Positions 26,480-38,589 are shown, counted from the stretch's first letter. The stretch: 64,000 nt of DNA from an uncultured Pseudomonadota bacterium (GCA_949295085.1 CASFJS010000008.1:38855-102854); one strand, 5' to 3'. Translations and numbers: made by a program. Notes: a model not told the origin generated them from the sequence alone.

Positions 26480-26945
26480 AAACCGTCCCCCGCTTGGGGA
26501 GGCAATAAAACCTGTCATGCCGCCTTTGGCGGGCATTCTTCCCACCAACCCTGTCACCCCGCCTCGGGAAAAATACTTGCCCAAAGGCTGGGTGACATGG
26601 TTTTAAAGGCGGCGGGACACGTCTTGGATCATTCTGAGGAGTTCTTCTTTTTCTGTCATTCTGAGGAGCGCTTCTTTTTCTGTCATTCTGAGGAGTGTTT
26701 CTTTTTCTGTCATTCTGAGGAGTGTTTCTTTTCCTGTCATTCTGAGGGACGAATGTCCCGAAGAATCTAAGAGATGTTTCGCTTACGCTCAACATGACGG
26801 TAAAAAAGAGATCTTTCGCTTCGCTCAGGATGACAATAAAGGGCGCTCAGGATGACTGTAAAAAAAACGCGCCTCTCAGGATGACGGTAAAGGGCGCTCA
26901 GGATGACAGGTTTTATTGCTTAGCCCCAGGCGGGAGGGGGGTGAC
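26480..26945. repeat. repeat cluster A: large imperfect palindrome built of gtcattctgagg / cctcaggatgac modules
   Basis: A 17-nt perfect inverted repeat gcaataaaacctgtcat (26502-26518) pairs with atgacaggttttattgc (26903-26919). The interior holds forward-oriented gtcattctgagg units on the left and reverse-oriented ctcaggatgac units on the right. Confidence 0.85.
26629..26763 (+). repeat. 27-bp tandem array (5 units) inside cluster A
   Basis: tcattctgagga units start at 26629, 26656, 26683, 26710 and 26737, an exact 27-nt period. Confidence 0.9.
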
Positions 26946-27001: not shown

Positions 27002-27030
27002 AAAAAAACCGGAGCCCGCAAGGGCTCCGG
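27002..27030 (-). terminator. rho-independent terminator downstream of the barrel gene
   Basis: Stem ccggagccc, loop gcaa, stem gggctccgg. On the minus strand a T7 run follows. It lies 13 nt after the stop at 27043. Confidence 0.6.
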
Positions 27031-27042
27031 AAAAAAGTTTCA

Positions 27043-28245
27043 TCAAAAAGCGAATCTTAATCCAGCTGTGGCCATGGCATCCATGCCAAAGCCGTTGCTG
27101 GATGTTCCGCTGTACGTCGGCTCGCCCTTAAAGGCTGTGCCGAACGTATAGTGGCCTCCAAACTCGCCTCCGAAAACGACCTCAAACCAGTCGAAGTGGA
27201 GGGCGAACTGGAGGTATCCGCTCGCTTTCACCCCAAGGGTGTAGCCGGCGGCGCTCATCCGGAAGCTGTTGTCTTCCGTCGCGCCGCATTCGGTTTTGAC
27301 ATATTCACCGAGTCCGGCTTTGGCGCCGAGCTCGATGGTCAAAACCGAATTGCTCCCCCATGGGAGGAATCGGTATCCGCCCTGGCCGTAAAAGGCGTTG
27401 GTGGAACTCTTATCAGATCCGAAGACCTGATAAGAACCAATGCCCCAAACGGCGCCGCCGCGAGCCGCACTTCTTTCGAAGTGAAGCAGCTCGGCTCCGG
27501 CTATCCAACCCTCGTTGCCGAGGAAAGAGTAGCCGGAGTATATCCCGCCCTGCCAGCAATTATCTCCGGAAACTCTCGTTTCCTTGAAGATATTGAAAGT
27601 CAAGGCGAGACCGGCGCTAAATCGGTCCGCGTGGTAGGCGGTGGGCAAAGCCTCCCAACCCTCCGGTACCGTAACGGTACGCTTTTGAGGGTTGTTAAAG
27701 GCGTACAGATAACGTCCGTAAACGGAAAGCGTTACCTTATCTCCCAACCGCACGCCCAGCGAGAGCTGGCCGCCGGCCTTAACACGCCACAGACTGTTGA
27801 AGTAGTCGTGGGTGTCAGTCTCGCCGTGCCACGAGTGATCGTGGTAGGCAAGCTGGCCGGCGCCGGCAAGCGCGTCGAGGCCGACATAGACTCTGTTGCC
27901 AAGCCTAAGCCCGACAACAGCCAACACATCGGAGGTGGCTCCGTAGTGCCGGCCATAGTCTATTGAAGCCATACCACCCCAACGCCAGCCAAAGGCCTTT
28001 GTCGGGGTGTAGACGCGGGTCGCCGAGAGGTCAGCCCCATAGGAACTGTAGCCTCCCCAGCTTCCGTGTCCGCCGAGAGTAATCTCAGTGTGGACACGCT
28101 CAGCCTGCGTAAAGCGCAGGTTACGGCTCTCGTAGCGGTAGCCGTAAGAGGTTGAGCGAACCTCCTGATTGTTCTGGGCGTTGACCGTCGCTGCGCTCAT
28201 ACAAGCGACGGTTAAAACTGCTAAAATATATATTTTTTTCCCCAT
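27043..28245 (-). CDS. predicted outer-membrane beta-barrel protein (family unknown)
   Basis: 400 aa with a signal peptide (ILAVLTVACMSAATVNAQ). Gly/Tyr/Ser-rich alternating strands run throughout, and the C-terminus is ...AGLRFAF. Codons are C/G-ending. Confidence 0.6.
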   Translation of the reverse strand: MGKKIYILAVLTVACMSAATVNAQNNQEVRSTSYGYRYESRNLRFTQAERVHTEITLGGHGSWGGYSSYGADLSATRVYTPTKAFGWRWGGMASIDYGRHYGATSDVLAVVGLRLGNRVYVGLDALAGAGQLAYHDHSWHGETDTHDYFNSLWRVKAGGQLSLGVRLGDKVTLSVYGRYLYAFNNPQKRTVTVPEGWEALPTAYHADRFSAGLALTFNIFKETRVSGDNCWQGGIYSGYSFLGNEGWIAGAELLHFERSAARGGAVWGIGSYQVFGSDKSSTNAFYGQGGYRFLPWGSNSVLTIELGAKAGLGEYVKTECGATEDNSFRMSAAGYTLGVKASGYLQFALHFDWFEVVFGGEFGGHYTFGTAFKGEPTYSGTSSNGFGMDAMATAGLRFAF

Positions 28246-28495: not shown

Positions 28496-31432
28496 TTACA
28501 TAATTGTGCCGACGAAGTAGTTGACAACTCCGTTATAAGAGATTGTCCACATTCCGTTCTCGGCAGAACCGGTGGCTTTCACGGGATCTGCAAAAGGGTT
28601 GCCGTTTAAGGCAGCCTCTGCATCACCCATGATATTGGCAGCTGCTCCGTTAGGGAAGTAATAGGTAATGATGTATCCGGTGCTGGTTTTTGAAGCCTCC
28701 ACTGCGGATACGGTACCAATTCTTCCCGGCTGAGCCCATGCCATGGCGCGACCGGAGGACAGAATGTTCTGCCCGTCGGCGGCTGTAAGGTCGGTTACGG
28801 TCCAGTCCGTACCGTTCACATCGCGAGAATAGGCGACATAGGCGCCATTTTTCTCAGCAAGAATGTGAAGGTCGGTGCTGACATAATGACAGTATAAATC
28901 ATAACTGTCAGTGATCCACATCCCGACAATCTTGCCGCTGATTACCTCCGCCTCGATATAATTCACTGGAATCGAAGCGGATACAATTTCGTTACCGTGT
29001 GTAAACACGATAACGGCACCATTTTCCTGAAAGGTAATGGTGCTAACCTCTACGGCACATACCGGAGCCTCTGAGCGGTAGTCTGTTCCGTTGAACATGA
29101 TGGCGGAAACCTCTCTTGCAGAGAAGTTCACCATCACCTCACGTCCCTCGACAGTAACAGTGTTACTGCCGTTGAACTGGAATGACTGCCCCTTAACGGA
29201 AGCCGGCATGGAGGCCAGAGTGTAAACAAAACGGTTTGTAACCGTGTAGTTCACACTCTCGGCAGAGGTTGTTCCGTTTGACCAAGTGGTCGTTCGGGTT
29301 GCCTCGTTGTCGCACACGATTGAAATCGTGTTGTTGACAACCGTTGCATTTTCTTCAAATGCAATGTGCCGGAAAGAGTTCTGGGCATTAATAACCGTCA
29401 CCTCCTTCTTTGTGACGGTTACGTCTACCGATATTTCAGCGTAGTCCTGGCTGTCATTCGCGTAGAATCGAATGAAAGCTTTTTCGGCAGAGGTGAAGCT
29501 GATTGTACGGGCTTCGGCAACGCAAGGCTTAATCTCGCCTGCGTAATCCTTGTCCATGTAAACCACTTTACCCTCAACCTCAGCGGACAAACGCTGAGCA
29601 GAGATCTCTTCCCCAGCCACGGTGACGGTACCGTTGGTGAAGTCGTAGGTCTTGCCCACAACCTCATTAACATCGTCCACCACAATCTCCGGAATGGAGA
29701 TGCGGAACGAGTTAACAACGGTATAGTCTACGCTCTCCTCGTTCTGGCGGCTGCCGTCAGACATCACCTCGACGAAATCCGCGATATTGTCGCAGAAAAC
29801 GTTAACGGTGTTGTTGGACAGCTGCGCCTCGCGCTGGAAAGCGACGTGGCGGTAACTCCACTCCACATCCTCCACCGTTACAGGCTCCTCGTAAGGAACC
29901 ACGGTGATGATGAGGGTGGCCTCGGCGTAGTCCTTGCTGTCCTCGTTATAAAAACGAATGACAGCCTCAGAAGCCGAGGTAAAGGTAATGGTCTTGGCTT
30001 CGGCAACGCAAGGCTTAATTTCGCCTGCGTAATCCTTACCCCTATACATCACCTTACCCTCAACCTCAGCGGATGTACGCTGAGCCTCGAGAGAGGTTCC
30101 GGCCACGGTGACCACGCCGTTGGTGAAGTCGTAGGTCTTGCCCACAACCTCATCGTCAGCCGTTGCCTGAATCTCCGGTACGGAGATGGCAAAACGGTTG
30201 ACCACGGTATAGTCCACTTCCTCGGCGTTGCGGCGGCTGTTGTCGCTCCACACCTCGACGAAATCTGCGACATTGTCGCAGAAAACGCTAACGGTGTTGT
30301 CGCTGGACAGCTGCGCCTCGCGCAGGAAGTTCTCGTGGCGGTAGGACCACTCGGTGTAGTTATAAACGGGGTCCTCCATAACCGGAGTTCCGTCTACATT
30401 TACCGAGATCTTGGCGTAGTCATCCTCATCCTCGTTATAAAAGAGGATGGTGGCGGATGACTCGCCGAAAGTGATTGTCCGGGCAGCAACCTTGCAAGGC
30501 TCAATTTCGCCTGCATAGTCTTTATTGCCGTAGACAACGTCACCCTCGACGTTTGCCTCGATCCAGGTGCAAGAGACCTGGTGGCCGTTGATCTTTGCCA
30601 CCCCGTCAACAAACTCAACGCTCTTGCCGTTGAGTCCTTTAACCTCGTTCTCGTTCAACTCCGGGAAGTTGAACTTAAACGTGTTGTTAACGAGGTAGGG
30701 AACGGTCTCCTCCTCTTTCCGGCTCCCGTCACTCCACACCTCAGCAAACTCTGCAAAGTTGTTGCAGAGAACGCTTATGGTATCATTTTCCAGTCCGGCA
30801 TTGCGCTGGAACTGGTAGTGACGGGTTGTCCAGTCCACGTGGTCGAACACGGGAGGGGTGTATCCCTCCTCGACCACGAAAGTCTGGATGGCCTCTGCGA
30901 GTACCATCTCTCCGTAGGACAGTGTGTACACTGTCTCGGAAAGCTCGTAGAAGCTCGGGTCATCCGAGGCTTCTACGACGGCGTGCTCGCCGCTTACCTG
31001 GAGCTCTACACCGCAATGCAGTGTATACTCCTGACCTTCCGTGTCTTTGAAGGTCATGGTGAGGCCGGCCACTTTCACCTTGTTGGTGGTGTCAGCGGCG
31101 CCGGAGTAGGCAAAACTGAGCTCGCGCTCAGCTGCCTTTTCCAGCCTTTCGGCGGGGCGGAGCCCCTCGGTTCCGGACACCTTAATGGTGTCCTGTGCCT
31201 CGAGCCCGAACGGGCTGTTGGCATAACCGAGGCTGGTGCTGTCGGAGGCAAAAACCTCGACAGACACCTCGCTTGCCGGAATGTAATATTCCGGCACGGG
31301 GTTCGGGGTTTCGGGGGTCAGCGAGTGTTCTTCTTTCCAGCTCTCGCTACAGCCGGTCATAGCTACCATGGCTACCACGATAGCTATGAAAAATTTCATC
31401 TTTTTCATATTTTTTGATTTTGATTTTTTCAT
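28496..31432 (-). CDS. large lipoprotein with four tandem ~160-aa modules (family unknown)
   Basis: The first ATG gives MKKSKSKNMKKMKFFIAIVVAMVAMTGC, with a lipobox; the ORF is open to a GTG at 31444. The protein is 978-982 aa. The modules share W(S/T)YRH..F.REAQLS..NT..VFCDN.ADFVEV.SD.SR and KDYAGEIKPCVAEA.TI.F. Confidence 0.65.
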   Translation of the reverse strand: MKKSKSKNMKKMKFFIAIVVAMVAMTGCSESWKEEHSLTPETPNPVPEYYIPASEVSVEVFASDSTSLGYANSPFGLEAQDTIKVSGTEGLRPAERLEKAAERELSFAYSGAADTTNKVKVAGLTMTFKDTEGQEYTLHCGVELQVSGEHAVVEASDDPSFYELSETVYTLSYGEMVLAEAIQTFVVEEGYTPPVFDHVDWTTRHYQFQRNAGLENDTISVLCNNFAEFAEVWSDGSRKEEETVPYLVNNTFKFNFPELNENEVKGLNGKSVEFVDGVAKINGHQVSCTWIEANVEGDVVYGNKDYAGEIEPCKVAARTITFGESSATILFYNEDEDDYAKISVNVDGTPVMEDPVYNYTEWSYRHENFLREAQLSSDNTVSVFCDNVADFVEVWSDNSRRNAEEVDYTVVNRFAISVPEIQATADDEVVGKTYDFTNGVVTVAGTSLEAQRTSAEVEGKVMYRGKDYAGEIKPCVAEAKTITFTSASEAVIRFYNEDSKDYAEATLIITVVPYEEPVTVEDVEWSYRHVAFQREAQLSNNTVNVFCDNIADFVEVMSDGSRQNEESVDYTVVNSFRISIPEIVVDDVNEVVGKTYDFTNGTVTVAGEEISAQRLSAEVEGKVVYMDKDYAGEIKPCVAEARTISFTSAEKAFIRFYANDSQDYAEISVDVTVTKKEVTVINAQNSFRHIAFEENATVVNNTISIVCDNEATRTTTWSNGTTSAESVNYTVTNRFVYTLASMPASVKGQSFQFNGSNTVTVEGREVMVNFSAREVSAIMFNGTDYRSEAPVCAVEVSTITFQENGAVIVFTHGNEIVSASIPVNYIEAEVISGKIVGMWITDSYDLYCHYVSTDLHILAEKNGAYVAYSRDVNGTDWTVTDLTAADGQNILSSGRAMAWAQPGRIGTVSAVEASKTSTGYIITYYFPNGAAANIMGDAEAALNGNPFADPVKATGSAENGMWTISYNGVVNYFVGTIM
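28955..30847 (-). repeat. intragenic tandem repeats (~486-489 nt period, 4 units)
   Basis: These correspond to protein residues ~200-830. The two central units share exact runs, for example 37 nt at both 29631-29667 and 30117-30153. Confidence 0.85.
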
Positions 31433-31841
31433 GTTTGAAAGCACTCACGCTAGAGTGCGAAAATAACCCTGCCGCTTACGGTTCGATGCGAAAACGGGTC
31501 AGCACTGTAAAAATCCCTAGGACTTGTAAGAATATTATGAGAAAAATCAATATAGAAGCTTATATTTGTAACAGAAACGTTATTCTGTTTAATAGAAACT
31601 CTTTTTTTTGAAATTTTTCTAATGATAGTCTTAATGGCCTAAAGATAATATGTGTGCAACTATACTATAGCATAAAAGCGCTTTGGGTGCAAGTTTATTT
31701 TTGGAAAAAATGCGCCGGTTAGGTGTTGATTTTTAATGTTTTTTTAACTTTTTACCGATTGCTTGACAAAATTTTTGTCTTTTCTTGTCCCGACTCGGAA
31801 AAAGCGGAAGCCCCCTTAGCCTCAAGAGGAATGCCTGCCTT

Positions 31842-32285
31842 GGCTCAGGATGACGTTTTTCTTTTGTCATGTTGAGGAACGTCAGTGACGAAACATCCCA
31901 GAGATCCTTCGCTGCGCTCAGGATGACGCACCTACCTGTCATTCTGAGGAGCGTTTCTTTTTCTGTCATTCTGAGGAGCGTTTCTTTTCCTGTCATTCTG
32001 AGGGACGGAAGTCCCGAAGAATCGTAAGAGATGTTTCGCTTACGCTCAACATGACGGTGAAAGGCGCTCAGGATGACGCACCTACCTGTCATTCTGAGGA
32101 GCGTTTCTTTTTCTGTCATTCTGAGGGACGAAAGTCCCGAAGAATCTTAAGAGATGTTTCGCTTACGCTCAACATGACAGTGAAAGGCGCTCAGGATGAC
32201 GCACCTACCGGTCATTCTGAGGAGCGTTTCTTTTTCTGTCATTCTGAGGAGCGAGAGCGACGAAGAATCCCATCCGTCGTCGCCC
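31842..32285. repeat. repeat cluster B: higher-order 150/123-bp tandem repeat of the same family
   Basis: gcgctcaggatgacgcaccta starts at 31914, 32064 and 32187. The 27-bp sub-units start at 31939/31966/31993, 32089/32116 and 32212/32239. Confidence 0.88.
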
Positions 32286-32339: not shown

Positions 32340-33257
32340 TCAGACGTTCAACAAGGTCGAAAACAACTGGGTGGCTTTGCTTTGCTTGTTTCTGATAGAA
32401 GCCAGATTGGTGTAGGCATCCGACATCAGCGTTGCCGTGGCCTCATATTTTTGCGCCTGTATCTGCGCGGCATAGGCCGCCGAGATATATTCCGCCGATG
32501 ACGTGCTCGATGTTAATGAAATTGTCTCGTTCTGCGAATCCGACGACTTGGTTTCGGTCACCAGATAGTCATTGCGGTATTTGTCGCCCTGACGGATTTG
32601 CATCACATAGGGCATGCTGGCCTCCGGTGTCTCTGCCTCGGAGCCGATTTCAATGTAGTAATAGCCCTTTTTGGCCTTGTATTCGCCGGACAAAATCGCT
32701 TTCATATTGGCGTATTCTTCGGAGTTTTTGTCCGCTGTCGAATCGCCGATGGTAACCGTACGGTTGCCTTTTTTCATATAAACCTTGATTGTCATACCCT
32801 CGGCAAGGTCATCCAGCAGGCCTTTATTGGCTTTTTCGCGCTCCTCTTTCATCTTTTCGACCTCGGCGCGGGCAATCTCCAAAGGTGTTTTCGGCGTGGT
32901 GTCAATTTCTTCTTCCTCGGTTTTGATACCCATGGCCTCAAGCTCGGATTTAATTTCGTTCAAGCGGGTTTCATATTTTGACAAATCCAAAACCTTGCCG
33001 TCGTCCGTCGAATCGCCGCTGCGCAGGTTGATAAACAGCTTGCCGTTGGACTGAACCTGAACCATGTACATATCTTTATTGTCATACGGATCCAGCGTCG
33101 CGATAACCGAAATACGCGAATCGTTCAAGCGCGACCAGCCGAGATCGCGGGCATTGGCAAAACTTTCGTCGACATTGTTAACGTCGGCAACCGTTTTGTC
33201 CCAGCCGGCAATATTGCTGTTCTCCGTTGTGCTGCCGTTGACAGAGGAAACGGACAT
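32340..33257 (-). CDS. hypothetical protein (no signal peptide; acidic helical centre)
   Basis: 305-aa ORF. The N-terminal ~100 aa show a beta-rich pattern (ATLDPYDNKDMYMVQVQSNGKLFINL) faintly like pre-peptidase C-terminal (PPC) domains. No confident family. Confidence 0.5.
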   Translation of the reverse strand: MSVSSVNGSTTENSNIAGWDKTVADVNNVDESFANARDLGWSRLNDSRISVIATLDPYDNKDMYMVQVQSNGKLFINLRSGDSTDDGKVLDLSKYETRLNEIKSELEAMGIKTEEEEIDTTPKTPLEIARAEVEKMKEEREKANKGLLDDLAEGMTIKVYMKKGNRTVTIGDSTADKNSEEYANMKAILSGEYKAKKGYYYIEIGSEAETPEASMPYVMQIRQGDKYRNDYLVTETKSSDSQNETISLTSSTSSAEYISAAYAAQIQAQKYEATATLMSDAYTNLASIRNKQSKATQLFSTLLNV

Positions 33258-34713: not shown

Positions 34714-37700
34714 ATGACTGATACATCTAACTGGCCAAGAGAAGTTATTGATATTGAACAATTAAAAACCGTTTTGGATAGTAACAGTATCAATATGGCT
34801 GACGAACTGGACATTGTTTTGCGGCAGAAAGCGCACGTTGATATGCCTTACGGAAAACGTTATCAGCATGTCAGGTTTGCCACAATTCTGGGCGCCGTTC
34901 ATGTTCCAAACAGTCTGTATGATGACGAAGAACGCCAAAAACACTTAAAGAAACTTCGCCGTTATTATGATCAAAGTGCGACAAAGGCCTATATTAAATT
35001 GGAAACGGCGGATTTTTATTGCAACTTTCTGGAGCAAATCAAAGACAGCATTGAACAAAGACACCCCGGAGTCAAACTGCCCTTGACCACTGTTGATAAG
35101 CCCAAAGAAAAAGAGCAAACTCGCGGCACCGGCGGCAAAAAACGGAGCAAACCCAACACGCAGAACGATCAAATTGTCAAAATAGACCGTTATCGGGTTA
35201 TTAATCCCTCTTGTCTGTCAAATCTGCCCGCCGAAGAATTAACCAAACTGCTGAATGAAACACTGGCTGAATATGCCAATAATATGACCGCAACCGCCGA
35301 TAAGGATAAATTAATCAAATTTATCGCCAATCTTGAGTATGCTTTTGCTTATGCACGAAATGACGGCAAAAGTTTAGAACAAAATTCCCATTTAAATCAG
35401 GCGCGGCGGCTGTATAACTACCGAGCCGGACAAAATCTTACGCCGCAAACCCAAAAGCTTTATGTCGCTTATATGGAAGCGGTTGAGGAAAAACTGAGAA
35501 AAGCGCATCCGGATTATCAGATTGTTTATGATGAAATTCCTCTGCTTTATGACAGTGTCCGAGCGGAACCCCAACCTGAGCCGGAACCCAAACCTGAGCC
35601 GGAACCCAAACCTGAGCCGGAACCCCAACCTGAGCCGGAGCCCCAACCGGAACCTGAGCCGGAACCCCAACCTGAGCCGGAGCCGGCGGATACGCAGGAA
35701 AAAATTTTGGAAGGCTATACCTCGGATGAATGGATGCAACTTTTGGCCGGCGTCAAAAATGAGGATGCTCTGCCGGTTTTTCTTGAAATGACGGCCGACT
35801 CGCTTCATCTGACAGAAGGGATGGAAATCACGGCTTTGCGTGAGGTTTTGGGCGAGCGTTTTCCGAAAAACTTTGAAAAACTGACCCCTGCGGAAAAAGA
35901 TGCCAAACGGCAAGAACTCAAAAGCAGCCTTAATCCGGCCGAGTTGGCAAAATTCAATATCCGGCTGACCGACAAAGCCCAAATTTTGGCCGAAAGCCTG
36001 CCGCCGCACCAACTGGTTGTGATGGCGCAGGATATTGACAAGCAGCTTGAAGATAAAAACCGCACCTCCGATGAGCAAGAGCAACAACTGCAGGAACTGA
36101 AAGCGCAAAAAGAAGTGCTGGTTGCCGCCATGGCCGCCAAAACCAAAGGTGTGGCTTTTGGAGACATCATCATTGACCAAACCAACGTTGCCGATGTTTA
36201 TGACGGCGCAATGGAAATGTTTGATTATCTGCAAAACTCCGGTGTGCAGCTTGAGGGCGAAGGTGAGTTTTCTTTTGCCGATCTGATGGAAAGTGCCAAA
36301 AATAAATTAAACAGAGAAATCGCCGCCTATGATGAAGCGAACGGTCTGACAAACATTAACGAAGAAGACGCGGATAAGCTGGAAAAAGCTTTTGATGATG
36401 TCTGGGCAACAGCCAAAGAAATTGATATCAACGACAAAACGCAGAACGAAGCCTGGTTTTCCAATATCGGAACGTTTTTCGACGGCCTGAGTTTTGCCGA
36501 GCCTGACGCCGATAAGAAAAAGCAAACTTTTATCGAGACCATTAAGCTCGAGGCTGCGCGCAATGCCGCCATACGATCCGTCGGAAAAAGCAAAGAAGAA
36601 TTAATCGAAGAATTAAAAATCCAATTACAAACAACGGCCGGCCAGCATATCCAAACATTGATTACGACCGATGTCATGGCAAATTTACCGGAAAACGCAA
36701 CCGATGAACAGCGTCGGCAGGCTGTTGCGGAAGCTTTGGCTCAGCCACGACATCAAATCAGCGACAAAGGCCTGGCAGCTTATCAGGCGGCCACGGTTAA
36801 CAACCATATCAGCTTTTTGAACCGTTTGGCCGGCAAGGCACACCTCAACAATCGCAGCGCGTCGGTTTTGAGCAAAATATACGGACCTTTGCAAAAAATC
36901 GATAAGGCCTGTATCGCCCGTTTTGGTCAAAATTATACCGTGGTGCGCAAATTCGGCCGGATGATGGCCGGTAATATGGGTGCTCAGGCTCTCAATCAGG
37001 TTGTGAGAATTGGCTGCAATACCGTCGGACTGGCGCTCGGCACGCCGGGGCTCGGTTCCCAGATTTATGCCGGCGTTTATGCCGCACAGGCTTTGACCCG
37101 TCTGGGGATGAGCTTTGCTCAGGAACGTCGCGACGCCAAAGCTCGGGGTGAGAAATACGGTTTCGGCAAATTCCTGTTGCAAAAATCACCGGAAATTTTG
37201 ATGACTGCCGCGGTCACAACGTCTATTTTCTTCGGTGGCGAAATTGCCAAACGCGGCATGGAAGCCGCCGTACGCTACGGCACCATGGCTGTCGGGTTTG
37301 GTATTTCATTGGTTAAAGGTATCAGAGCCCAGCGCAAAGCCGGCAACAAATGGGGCAAAGCCATCGCCAAGGCCTTTGCCAATTCGGCAGCCTCAACCGC
37401 GACGGCCGTTGCAACCGGTATGGGCATGGCCTGGGGCGTCAACAATCTGGCGGCCGAAATAACCAATAACACATCGCTTGATTTGTGGGGCGAACACGGC
37501 ACCCGCCAGCCGACCGCCGATGAATATAATCCTGACGACGCCAGTTACAGCAAAGATACTGTCGGCAGCGATAAATTGGATAATTATAAAAATATGACTC
37601 CCGAAGAACTCAACCGGTCCGGAATTATCAAGGAGGGGCTGCCTCGTGACGAAGCGGCCGGTTTGATTAACCAAACCGATGAGCAACTGGCCGACAAAGG

Positions 37701-38589
37701 CTTGGTTCGCAGTGAAACCAGCGCCAATGATCCGAACGGCGTTAAGATTGTCGACGAACCGGCCGGGGTGGCTTATGCCAAAGGCGCGGTTGAAAACGCC
37801 AAAGATATTCTGGAAATGTGGACCAAAGATGCGCCGGGATTGTTGGACGACAATATCAGCAAGCTGCAGCCGATTCTGGAAGAATGGAATGCCCGGTTTC
37901 CGGATAAAGCCATGGATGCCCACCGGTTGTTGCTGATTGCCGGCGACTGCGGTGCACAGATGGTTAATGCCGATATTGACACCAATATGCACCACGTCGA
38001 CCATAGCGATACACCGGCGGAAGTTCACGGAAATCATAAAGTTTTTGGCTCACAATGGTGCGAGGCCAACAACTTTAATCATGATATAATTAAACATATC
38101 GCCTCCGTTACCGATGCCAACGGCCATATCATCCCCGAAAAATTATCGCCGGATACTTTGTGGGCCATTGCCGAGCTTGACGCAGCGGTCAGCGCACATA
38201 ATGAAGTCGGACATATTAACGGTGCGCCGGTTCATACCGACGGGGTATTGGCACGCAACGCCTCGGCAGACGGAACAGGCGTCTTTCACCATGTTGACGA
38301 TGGTAAAGGCGAGGTCTTTACGACTTATGCCGACGGCGACGGTAAAATCACGATACCGGAAAAAGCGCATTATGAACGGATTGATGAATTCTCCAAGGTT
38401 GAACAACACAGCTATATTCCGTTCACGGTTACGTTTGACCGGATTTTCGGCGGCGCGCAAAAATTTACTCAAAGCCTGAAACGGATTATGGGCGCCAACG
38501 GTAAGTATAAGGAAAAAACAAACGCCGACGGCACCAAGGATAAGTCGGCAGGTATTAATCCGGTTAAGCTTTCCGGCGGCCGCTCTTAA
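34714..38589 (+). CDS. giant orphan protein (1291 aa) with PEPEPK/Q repeat tract and Gly/Ala-rich hydrophobic centre
   Basis: One uninterrupted ORF with backbone-like codon usage and no signal peptide. No domain recognised. Confidence 0.7.
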   Translation: MTDTSNWPREVIDIEQLKTVLDSNSINMADELDIVLRQKAHVDMPYGKRYQHVRFATILGAVHVPNSLYDDEERQKHLKKLRRYYDQSATKAYIKLETADFYCNFLEQIKDSIEQRHPGVKLPLTTVDKPKEKEQTRGTGGKKRSKPNTQNDQIVKIDRYRVINPSCLSNLPAEELTKLLNETLAEYANNMTATADKDKLIKFIANLEYAFAYARNDGKSLEQNSHLNQARRLYNYRAGQNLTPQTQKLYVAYMEAVEEKLRKAHPDYQIVYDEIPLLYDSVRAEPQPEPEPKPEPEPKPEPEPQPEPEPQPEPEPEPQPEPEPADTQEKILEGYTSDEWMQLLAGVKNEDALPVFLEMTADSLHLTEGMEITALREVLGERFPKNFEKLTPAEKDAKRQELKSSLNPAELAKFNIRLTDKAQILAESLPPHQLVVMAQDIDKQLEDKNRTSDEQEQQLQELKAQKEVLVAAMAAKTKGVAFGDIIIDQTNVADVYDGAMEMFDYLQNSGVQLEGEGEFSFADLMESAKNKLNREIAAYDEANGLTNINEEDADKLEKAFDDVWATAKEIDINDKTQNEAWFSNIGTFFDGLSFAEPDADKKKQTFIETIKLEAARNAAIRSVGKSKEELIEELKIQLQTTAGQHIQTLITTDVMANLPENATDEQRRQAVAEALAQPRHQISDKGLAAYQAATVNNHISFLNRLAGKAHLNNRSASVLSKIYGPLQKIDKACIARFGQNYTVVRKFGRMMAGNMGAQALNQVVRIGCNTVGLALGTPGLGSQIYAGVYAAQALTRLGMSFAQERRDAKARGEKYGFGKFLLQKSPEILMTAAVTTSIFFGGEIAKRGMEAAVRYGTMAVGFGISLVKGIRAQRKAGNKWGKAIAKAFANSAASTATAVATGMGMAWGVNNLAAEITNNTSLDLWGEHGTRQPTADEYNPDDASYSKDTVGSDKLDNYKNMTPEELNRSGIIKEGLPRDEAAGLINQTDEQLADKGLVRSETSANDPNGVKIVDEPAGVAYAKGAVENAKDILEMWTKDAPGLLDDNISKLQPILEEWNARFPDKAMDAHRLLLIAGDCGAQMVNADIDTNMHHVDHSDTPAEVHGNHKVFGSQWCEANNFNHDIIKHIASVTDANGHIIPEKLSPDTLWAIAELDAAVSAHNEVGHINGAPVHTDGVLARNASADGTGVFHHVDDGKGEVFTTYADGDGKITIPEKAHYERIDEFSKVEQHSYIPFTVTFDRIFGGAQKFTQSLKRIMGANGKYKEKTNADGTKDKSAGINPVKLSGGRS
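35566..35685 (+). repeat. in-frame 18-bp-type tandem repeat encoding (PEPEPK/Q)n
   Basis: cctgagccggaaccc(a/c)aa is reiterated. The translation is PQPEPEPKPEPEPKPEPEPQPEPEPQPEPEPEPQPEPEP. Confidence 0.9.

Follow-up and report, generated by a model that had tools for sequence, protein, structure and literature searches.

The stretch analysed here, a window of 64,000 nucleotides (nt) from an uncultured Pseudomonadota bacterium (GCA_949295085.1, CASFJS010000008.1:38855-102854), carries at 28496..31444 on the minus strand a gene for a predicted modular lipoprotein, followed by a gene for a putative outer-membrane beta-barrel. Together the two genes form an orphan envelope module in an uncultured lineage of gut bacteria, and the unit clearly varies in the copy number of its repeats and in its cassettes. 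We put the probability at roughly 55% that the first gene encodes a variable, outer-membrane-anchored and probably surface-exposed lipoprotein, which works with the dedicated barrel encoded downstream. We infer the exposure at the surface, the existence of a ligand and the role of the barrel, which could be that of an exporter, an anchor or a channel.

The first-pass annotation of this DNA had proposed a long lipoprotein open reading frame (ORF), and the frame is indeed open throughout, with 982 codons from a GTG. The observation as such holds, and the interpretation given with it is in large part reasonable; it lacked the downstream partner gene, the weak likeness of the N-terminal domain to the module and the mosaic make-up of the alleles. 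The true start is probably the ATG at 31408 (residue 13), since the closest homologues start at an ATG matching this residue (MKKMKFF; homologues begin with MKKTKFF), and the product would be 970 amino acids (aa) long. The bounds of the modules were set with a hidden Markov model (HMM) built from the gene's own four modules. With residues counted from the GTG, the following plan was obtained:

31349..31444, minus strand: signal peptide of the lipoprotein, ending at the Cys of the lipobox (residues 1-32, counted from the GTG), predicted from the translation and the lipobox rule.
30851..31348, minus strand: N-terminal domain (residues 33-198, about 166 aa), all-beta in the full-length AlphaFold2 (AF2) model, with a predicted local distance difference test (pLDDT) score of about 81-93 over residues 51-198.
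30374..30850, minus strand: module 1 (residues 199-357), from the HMM domain table and the alignment.
29885..30367, minus strand: module 2 (residues 360-520), from the HMM domain table, also modelled on its own.
29399..29878, minus strand: module 3 (residues 523-682), from the HMM domain table.
28937..29398, minus strand: module 4 (residues 683-836), divergent and of a 'terminal type', from the HMM domain table and the alignment.
28499..28936, minus strand: C-terminal domain (residues 837-982, 146 aa), beta-rich with two short helices, pLDDT about 81-92 in the full-length AF2 model.

The n-region is Lys-rich and is followed by a hydrophobic stretch and then by the junction VAMTGC-SESWKEEH, in agreement with the lipobox AMTGC and the acidic stretch first annotated here. 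The MKKMKFFIAIVVAMVAMTG preceding the Cys fits a rule in the style of PROSITE PS51257, written as a regular expression (positively charged n-region, hydrophobic h-region, [LVI..][AST..][GAS]C, Cys at position 15-35), and 37 of 40 N-terminally complete family members fit it as well. The lipobox Cys (Cys32) is an invariant column in an alignment of 38 proteins. Asp at position +2 was found in 0 of the 40 complete members, which mostly have Ser, Thr or Gly there and then acidic residues. Both LspA (Peptidase_A8, 124.6 bits) and LolA (92.1 bits) were identified above cut-off in the genome that the window comes from. By this rule-based signal analysis the product is a predicted lipoprotein, which Lol would deliver to the outer membrane, where the barrel would then export it or hold it at the surface.

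The HMM domain table gave four tandem modules of about 160 aa, as had been proposed. Modules 2 and 3 are 68% identical in amino acids, module 1 is 43-46% identical to these two, and module 4 about 30% to the others. Each module has two conserved Cys, as first reported; both columns are invariant across the gene's four copies and at least 90% conserved among 32 diverse modules of relatives. The sequence motifs described earlier fit modules 1-3 well, and module 4 only loosely. A terminal-type module like module 4 stands before the C-terminal domain in the relatives compared, with the common signature SREVSAIMF...APVC. The C-terminal domain, annotated before as a distinct region of about 150 aa, proved to be 146 aa without kinship to the module in profile-profile comparison; in the AF2 full-length model it has 13 short beta segments by DSSP and two helices.

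An exact 37-nt run occurs, as the first-pass annotation said, at both 29631-29667 and 30117-30153, and no other run at the 486-nt period is as long. Its length nominally exceeds what codon-column shuffles predict (p about 0.02), and it could have arisen as a short conversion tract or be a patch under constraint. The recent duplication of modules 2 and 3 that had been read from such runs did not stand, since their synonymous divergence (dS) is about 0.67, far above the 0.02-0.09 between conspecific strains, and the duplication is thus old. Truly recent duplications, with modules 95-99% identical, were observed only in other family members.

The further idea that the repeats are a substrate for copy-number change, with module number to be compared in related strains, found good agreement in the relatives, which have from 1-2 to 8 modules. 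About 24 full-length relatives have two modules (plus one scoring a single module), five have three, five including this gene have four, three have five, and one has eight. Neighbouring modules are 88-99% identical in P0007, P0009, P0010 and P0027, and these identities mark independent recent module duplications. Among alleles with a nucleotide identity of at least 90%, module counts of 4, 3 and 2 occur, and the differences are in-register deletions of 486 nt. In the metatranscriptome matches X5-X7, a net 486-nt in-register deletion joins modules 1 and 2, followed by a terminal-type module, giving a two-module allele, and X8 has an exact 486-nt deletion of modules 2/3. Two conspecific contigs, L101 and L102, are 98-99% identical to the window in the flanks and only about 92% in the two-gene island. 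L101 has four modules and an unalignable N-terminal domain (allele P0002) with 44.6% aa identity, vs 89-98% in the remaining domains; L102 carries three, of which the second is a hybrid of modules 2 and 3. Whole modules are gained and lost by in-register recombination. Divergence, given as dS and as the ratio of nonsynonymous to synonymous change (dN/dS), was as follows:

Lipoprotein gene: dS 0.24-0.29, dN/dS 0.30-0.37.
Barrel gene: dS 0.28-0.33, dN/dS 0.13-0.16.
Flanking tkt, fba, orf305 and dnaJ: dS 0.02-0.09, dN/dS 0.11 or less.

The dS of the island greatly exceeds that of the flanks; therefore the alleles are much older than the genomic background and have been reshuffled by recombination. 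Amino-acid change is relatively relaxed. Differences of this kind in module number, N-terminal domain and alleles are typical of exposed proteins.

Such variation bears on another explanation, in which the lipoprotein would be a periplasm-facing spacer or tether, reaching from the outer membrane to peptidoglycan or the inner membrane, with the barrel as membrane anchor. The default Lol route leaves proteobacterial lipoproteins on the inner leaflet, and two conserved Cys per module would suit the oxidising periplasm as well as the surface. A fixed periplasmic width would constrain length, so the variable module number (from 1-2 up to 8 in relatives, and from 2 to 4 where alleles share at least 90% identity) weighs against a spacer. 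In addition, the lipoprotein is missing from about 28 of the 37 species of the genus, and raised allele divergence with replacement of the N-terminal domain would be unexpected in a housekeeping envelope protein. We regard this explanation as quite improbable.

The second gene of the island was not mentioned in the first-pass annotation:

27043..28245, minus strand: partner gene, 400 aa, secreted, rich in Gly and aromatic residues, ending in ...GLRFAF, from the ORF and the homologue alignment.

It lies about 250 nt downstream of the lipoprotein gene on the same strand. The product has a signal peptide with a cleavage site of the ...A-x-A/Q type, and the mature chain of about 375 residues opens directly with Gly/aromatic beta-type sequence. 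Its final Phe is shared by all 18 aligned homologues, and none of the 35 homologues found is named. These features point to an outer-membrane beta-barrel. No match was obtained in Pfam (E<=10), NCBIfam or PDB sequences, and hhalign showed no relationship to the neighbouring Omp25/31-like outer-membrane proteins (OMPs) of 202 aa (OMP_b-brl).

Six other genomes of the genus, as well as the two conspecific contigs, have the partner gene immediately after the lipoprotein gene, and the pair occupies at least three chromosomal sites. Both genes were present in 8 of 37 genomes of the genus, with co-occurrence in 8 of 8 complete cases; the two genomes with a single gene (G026 and G034) are both cut by contig ends, and in the other 27 genomes nothing beyond weak partial hits to one gene (G008, G021, G036) came up. 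The lipoprotein and barrel genes are thus strictly coupled in genomes. In the relative at L103/L104, an unannotated gene of 377 aa occupies the position of the partner. A barrel gene 95% identical to that of the window lies at 8649-9848 of L102, where the gene calls show only two short ORFs on the opposite strand; the absence of the partner from databases can therefore be an annotation artefact. Co-variation of the N-terminal domain with the barrel was looked for and none was clear: L101 has a replaced N-terminal domain and a barrel of 91.5% identity, and L102 an N-terminal domain of 89% and a barrel of 95%.

A conserved pair of lipoprotein and outer-membrane protein could also serve nutrient capture, in which the lipoprotein would bind at the surface a substrate, for instance a glycan, haem or a vitamin, and hand it over to the barrel as a diffusion channel, in a manner analogous to TbpB/TbpA, HpuA/HpuB, BtuG/BtuB or SusE/F with SusCD. 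The tandem beta modules recall the multivalent arrays of SusE/SusF, which resemble carbohydrate-binding modules (CBMs), the genome of 1.47 Mb suggests reliance on scavenging, and the pair was found in gut metatranscriptome assemblies. However, the barrel of about 375 mature residues is small and is devoid of a plug, a TonB-box or a signature of TonB-dependent transporters (TBDTs), and active uptake is thereby excluded. Neither transporter nor glycosidase nor regulator genes are linked to the pair in the window and related loci, its absence from most species of the genus would be odd for a core nutrient route, and whole-domain allele swaps are commoner in antigens than in substrate binders. Nutrient capture is therefore considered rather unlikely.

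In a more specific proposal, the orphan barrel would be a new dedicated translocon or anchor that flips the lipoprotein to the surface, a functional analogue of Slam with neither sequence kinship nor a tetratricopeptide repeat (TPR) domain; the C-terminal domain, peculiar to the family, would serve as the signal for export or docking, and the fold of the module would be new. All parts of this proposal together we hold only tentatively, and it is unlikely as a whole.

For the fold of the lipoprotein, comparison with databases gave the same picture as the first-pass annotation, which had recognised no Pfam-type domain. Nothing above noise was obtained in Pfam and NCBIfam for the whole protein, nor for the N- and C-terminal domains searched separately, even at E<=10. 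Profile searches of PDB sequences with the module, the N-terminal domain, the C-terminal domain, and the last module plus C-terminal domain revealed no real relative. A match of the C-terminal domain to WD40 designer propellers (E 1e-13) was rejected, with zero individually significant stretches; the E-value arises because one weak 43-residue match is summed over many identical blades. The precomputed label PF25371 (DUF7884) on the eight-module relative P0010, together with its other weak hits, was likewise rejected as a sum over repeats with no single significant stretch.

The AF2 model of module 2, run with the 32-module alignment, is all-beta, with a pLDDT of 97.7 and a predicted template-modelling score (pTM) of 0.88. 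Three long strands of 13-18 residues come one after another, a fourth has 13, and a compact group of short strands comes next. Foldseek with this model gave no match at E<=0.001 in PDB (best template-modelling score, TM-score, 0.26) or BFVD, in line with the unrecognised fold noted earlier, and the 160-residue module may be a new beta fold. The full-length model (pLDDT 83.6, pTM 0.33) has confident all-beta domains joined by short linkers of low confidence, so that the chain is modelled as separate domains strung along its length; Foldseek with it returned only noise (TM 0.05-0.07, rmsd above 28 Å). A comparison of the N-terminal domain with the module profile by hhalign (probability 67%, E 5e-5) suggests that this domain is a distant, partial relative of the module.

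If the lipoprotein is surface-exposed and works with the barrel, the tandem modules would form a rigid beta-rich stalk or a multivalent array, whose length would be tuned by module number. The fast-exchanged N-terminal domain, and perhaps the modules, would touch an external partner, which could be a host or dietary ligand, an antibody or a phage, and this contact would drive the allelic diversification. The product may thus be the surface-exposed adhesin or binding protein supposed in the first-pass annotation, a reading drawn indirectly from population genetics and gene context.

Several points weigh against this surface role. Facing the periplasm is the default for proteobacterial lipoproteins. 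The barrel fold of the partner is predicted from sequence only, and the partner has no similarity to Slam/DUF560, TBDTs or OMP_b-brl. Lipoprotein paralogues lacking an adjoining barrel gene occur in two genomes (G004:C2 at L013 and G031:C1 at L016), each of which has one barrel elsewhere. The paralogue at L016 is entirely without an N-terminal domain and carries eight modules, among which three are 97-99% identical; that at L013 lies at the tkt-fba site used by the pair in the window, and the barrel-linked copy of G004 lies elsewhere. The dN/dS is below 1 in every domain, thus positive selection is not demonstrated, and recombination with other species could alone explain the deep divergence of alleles. 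The most variable domain, the N-terminal one, is located beside the lipid anchor and not at the distal end. Lastly, the contigs from metatranscriptomes can hold DNA, and their source is a 90-95% identical allele of another strain.

These contigs, from four gut or faecal metatranscriptome runs of two studies, match both genes at 90-95% identity. The signals found around the pair are:

27009..27030, minus strand: terminator-like hairpin of 9 pairs (8 G-C) followed by a T-run, just 3' of the barrel gene.
31664..31692, minus strand: candidate promoter, TTGCAC, 17 nt, TATAGT, with a weak -35, read by eye and missed by a consensus scan.

The hairpin is likely the end of the two-gene unit. The candidate promoter lies about 220 nt upstream of the start codon. 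The alignments of X6 and X7 run from 27061, just inside the terminator, with loose ends past this point, to 31644 and 31600, and their upstream ends fall just downstream of the candidate promoter; X5 goes further upstream, to 31834. In X8, one contig of 1627 nt joins part of the barrel gene to part of the lipoprotein gene, as a bicistronic transcript would. Depth of contigs is a poor measure of expression. The 5' leader of about 220 nt (31560-31640 region, minus strand) is AT-rich and has an A8 run, and the surroundings of the start codon are A-rich (AAAAAATCAAAATCAAAAAAT).

The family was small in every search. A word-indexed search of 5.8 billion proteins gave 42 relatives, all unnamed metagenomic proteins, and when 1.84 billion cluster representatives were searched exhaustively with the module HMM, 52 proteins were found, of which three are artefacts and about 49 true members. 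P0080, P0085 (Big_5 / ice-binding) and P0090 were rejected as relatives, being low-complexity or repeat artefacts. The distant true members inspected mostly share the plan of lipoprotein signal, N-terminal domain, one or two modules and C-terminal domain, and a search with the C-terminal region found matches in this family only. Sixty-one genomes were surveyed, the window's own and 60 relatives, covering 37 species of its genus and 24 other genera of the class. Strong matches to the lipoprotein were present in 9 of the 37 species and weak ones in two more; the 24 other genera had none. A scan of genome contigs with the lipoprotein as query had no match. DnaK groups the genome with metagenome-assembled genomes labelled 'uncultured Alphaproteobacteria bacterium' or 'Azospirillum sp. 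51_20', which come from human, mouse, chicken and ruminant guts. The family is confined to one genus of gut and rumen Alphaproteobacteria and is patchy there.

Patchy spread, several insertion sites, mosaic alleles and length variation are typical of loci in arms races between phage and host, and the pair could in this sense serve phages as a receptor and be selected for escape, or it could block their adsorption as a shield or decoy at the surface. The phage and plasmid collections had no match to the locus of the pair by tblastn, no PADLOC-type search being made, and no defence genes are consistently adjacent. As the chief explanation, phage interaction is very improbable, and it is compatible with a surface-exposed lipoprotein working with its barrel.

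The island is bracketed by two arrays of repetitive extragenic palindrome-like (REP-like) units:

26626..26940, plus strand: right-hand REP-like array of 27-nt units.
31827..32270, plus strand: left-hand REP-like array of 27-nt and 123-nt units, in the same orientation.

The core of the 27-nt repeat is GTCATTCTGAGGAGCG, and it also occurs within the 123-nt higher-order units. About 60 copies at about 25 sites were found genome-wide, and within the 64-kb window only around the island. Translating the repeat gives spurious ORFs reading 'CHSEERFFF' and 'LRMTVKGAQDD'. 'Empty-site' joints between the arrays (DNA run X2) were rejected as evidence of excision, with sides of only 24-40 nt and a repeat family spread over the genome. 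A foreign base composition was rejected as well, the GC content of the island being 50-54%, in agreement with the neighbouring genes tkt and fba.

Between the island and dnaJ, an orphan ORF of 305 aa (32340-33257, minus strand) has no family match; its protein is identical (dN = 0) in the two conspecific contigs, unlike its hypervariable neighbour. An ORF of 1291 aa (34714-38589, plus strand) has a (PEPEPK/Q)n tract at about residues 285-330, and against Pfam and NCBIfam it gave no real family, with hits to the proline-rich repeat only. It is kept beside dnaJ in the conspecific contigs, where gene calls of 1244-1283 aa run off the ends of the loci. At L103 (6572-7402), a two-module relative has small GIY-YIG and RHH_4 (ribbon-helix-helix) genes just upstream of the pair, possibly what is left of a mobile or toxin-antitoxin-like element at this insertion site.

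The lineage is made up of Alphaproteobacteria of gut and rumen that have small genomes and have been met only in metagenomes. The pair, which is lineage-specific, variable between strains and apparently transcribed in faecal metatranscriptomes, is a prime candidate for its main variable surface structure and would be a useful marker for strain typing and as an antigen. If the fold of the module is new, the module modelled at pLDDT 97.7 deserves an experimental structure, and the importance of the pair would rise if the barrel is a new device for surface export of lipoproteins. For a new route of such export, outside the Slam and Bacteroidota systems, a coupled pair unrelated to Slam would be a compact, reconstitutable system.

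Among known systems, LptE/LptD and RcsF with OmpA/C/F likewise have an outer-membrane lipoprotein functionally tied to a barrel, and the cited account proposes LptDE as a surface route for some lipoproteins (PMC12065857). The lipoproteins of those complexes are small and conserved, have a single domain and play essential or regulatory parts, whereas the present one has 970 aa, is modular and hypervariable, and can be dispensed with in most species. In TbpA/B, SusC/D and BtuB/G, the barrel is a 22-stranded TBDT with a plug domain and a TonB box, while the partner here is of 400 aa and has no Plug or TonB_dep_Rec match; TBDT genes were also absent from the flanks of the window and of related loci.

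Intimin and invasin (Big_1 repeats with a C-terminal lectin-like tip), and Ig-like repeat proteins in general, share a tandem beta stalk and a distinct C-terminal domain with the lipoprotein; these proteins also vary in module number between relatives and are associated with an outer-membrane barrel. In the present pair, however, the barrel is a polypeptide of its own and a lipid serves as the anchor, and the modules are twice the size of Ig-like ones, have strands of 13-18 residues and match no Ig-like structure (best TM-score 0.26). Nor did Pfam give a hit above noise to the Ig-like and cadherin-like repeat families (Big_1/2/3/5, Cadherin, FN3 and similar). SusE/SusF and SGBP-B, encoded in polysaccharide utilization loci of Bacteroides, likewise carry an N-terminal lipid anchor and a string of beta domains whose number varies between paralogues, and the gut habitat and the acidic stretch right after the lipidated Cys are further likenesses. 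No SusC/SusD or glycoside hydrolase genes lie near the pair, no CBM or Ig-like match was found with Pfam and Foldseek, and the host here is an alphaproteobacterium, not a member of Bacteroidota.

The partner OMP in Slam systems is composed of an N-terminal TPR domain and a 14-stranded DUF560 (PF04575) barrel (PMC5449769), whereas the partner here has no DUF560/SlipAM match (Pfam E<=10) and no TPR-like segment. PF04575 was not found in the window's genome, and the control genomes were equally silent. The C-terminal domain has no TbpB-like, GNA1870 or PagP-barrel signature in Pfam (E<=10), tandem modules of 160 aa are not known in Slam cargo, and the lipoprotein gene comes first in the order here. 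In other respects the Slam systems (type XI secretion; TbpB, LbpB, fHbp and HpuA of Neisseria, Moraxella and Pasteurellaceae) resemble the pair, for there too the lipoprotein gene adjoins a dedicated barrel gene (PMC5449769, PMC9090332). Their cargo, too, is all-beta and has several domains, of which the C-terminal one is conserved and the N-terminal part varies more, and strong allelic diversity in a host-associated bacterium is common to both.

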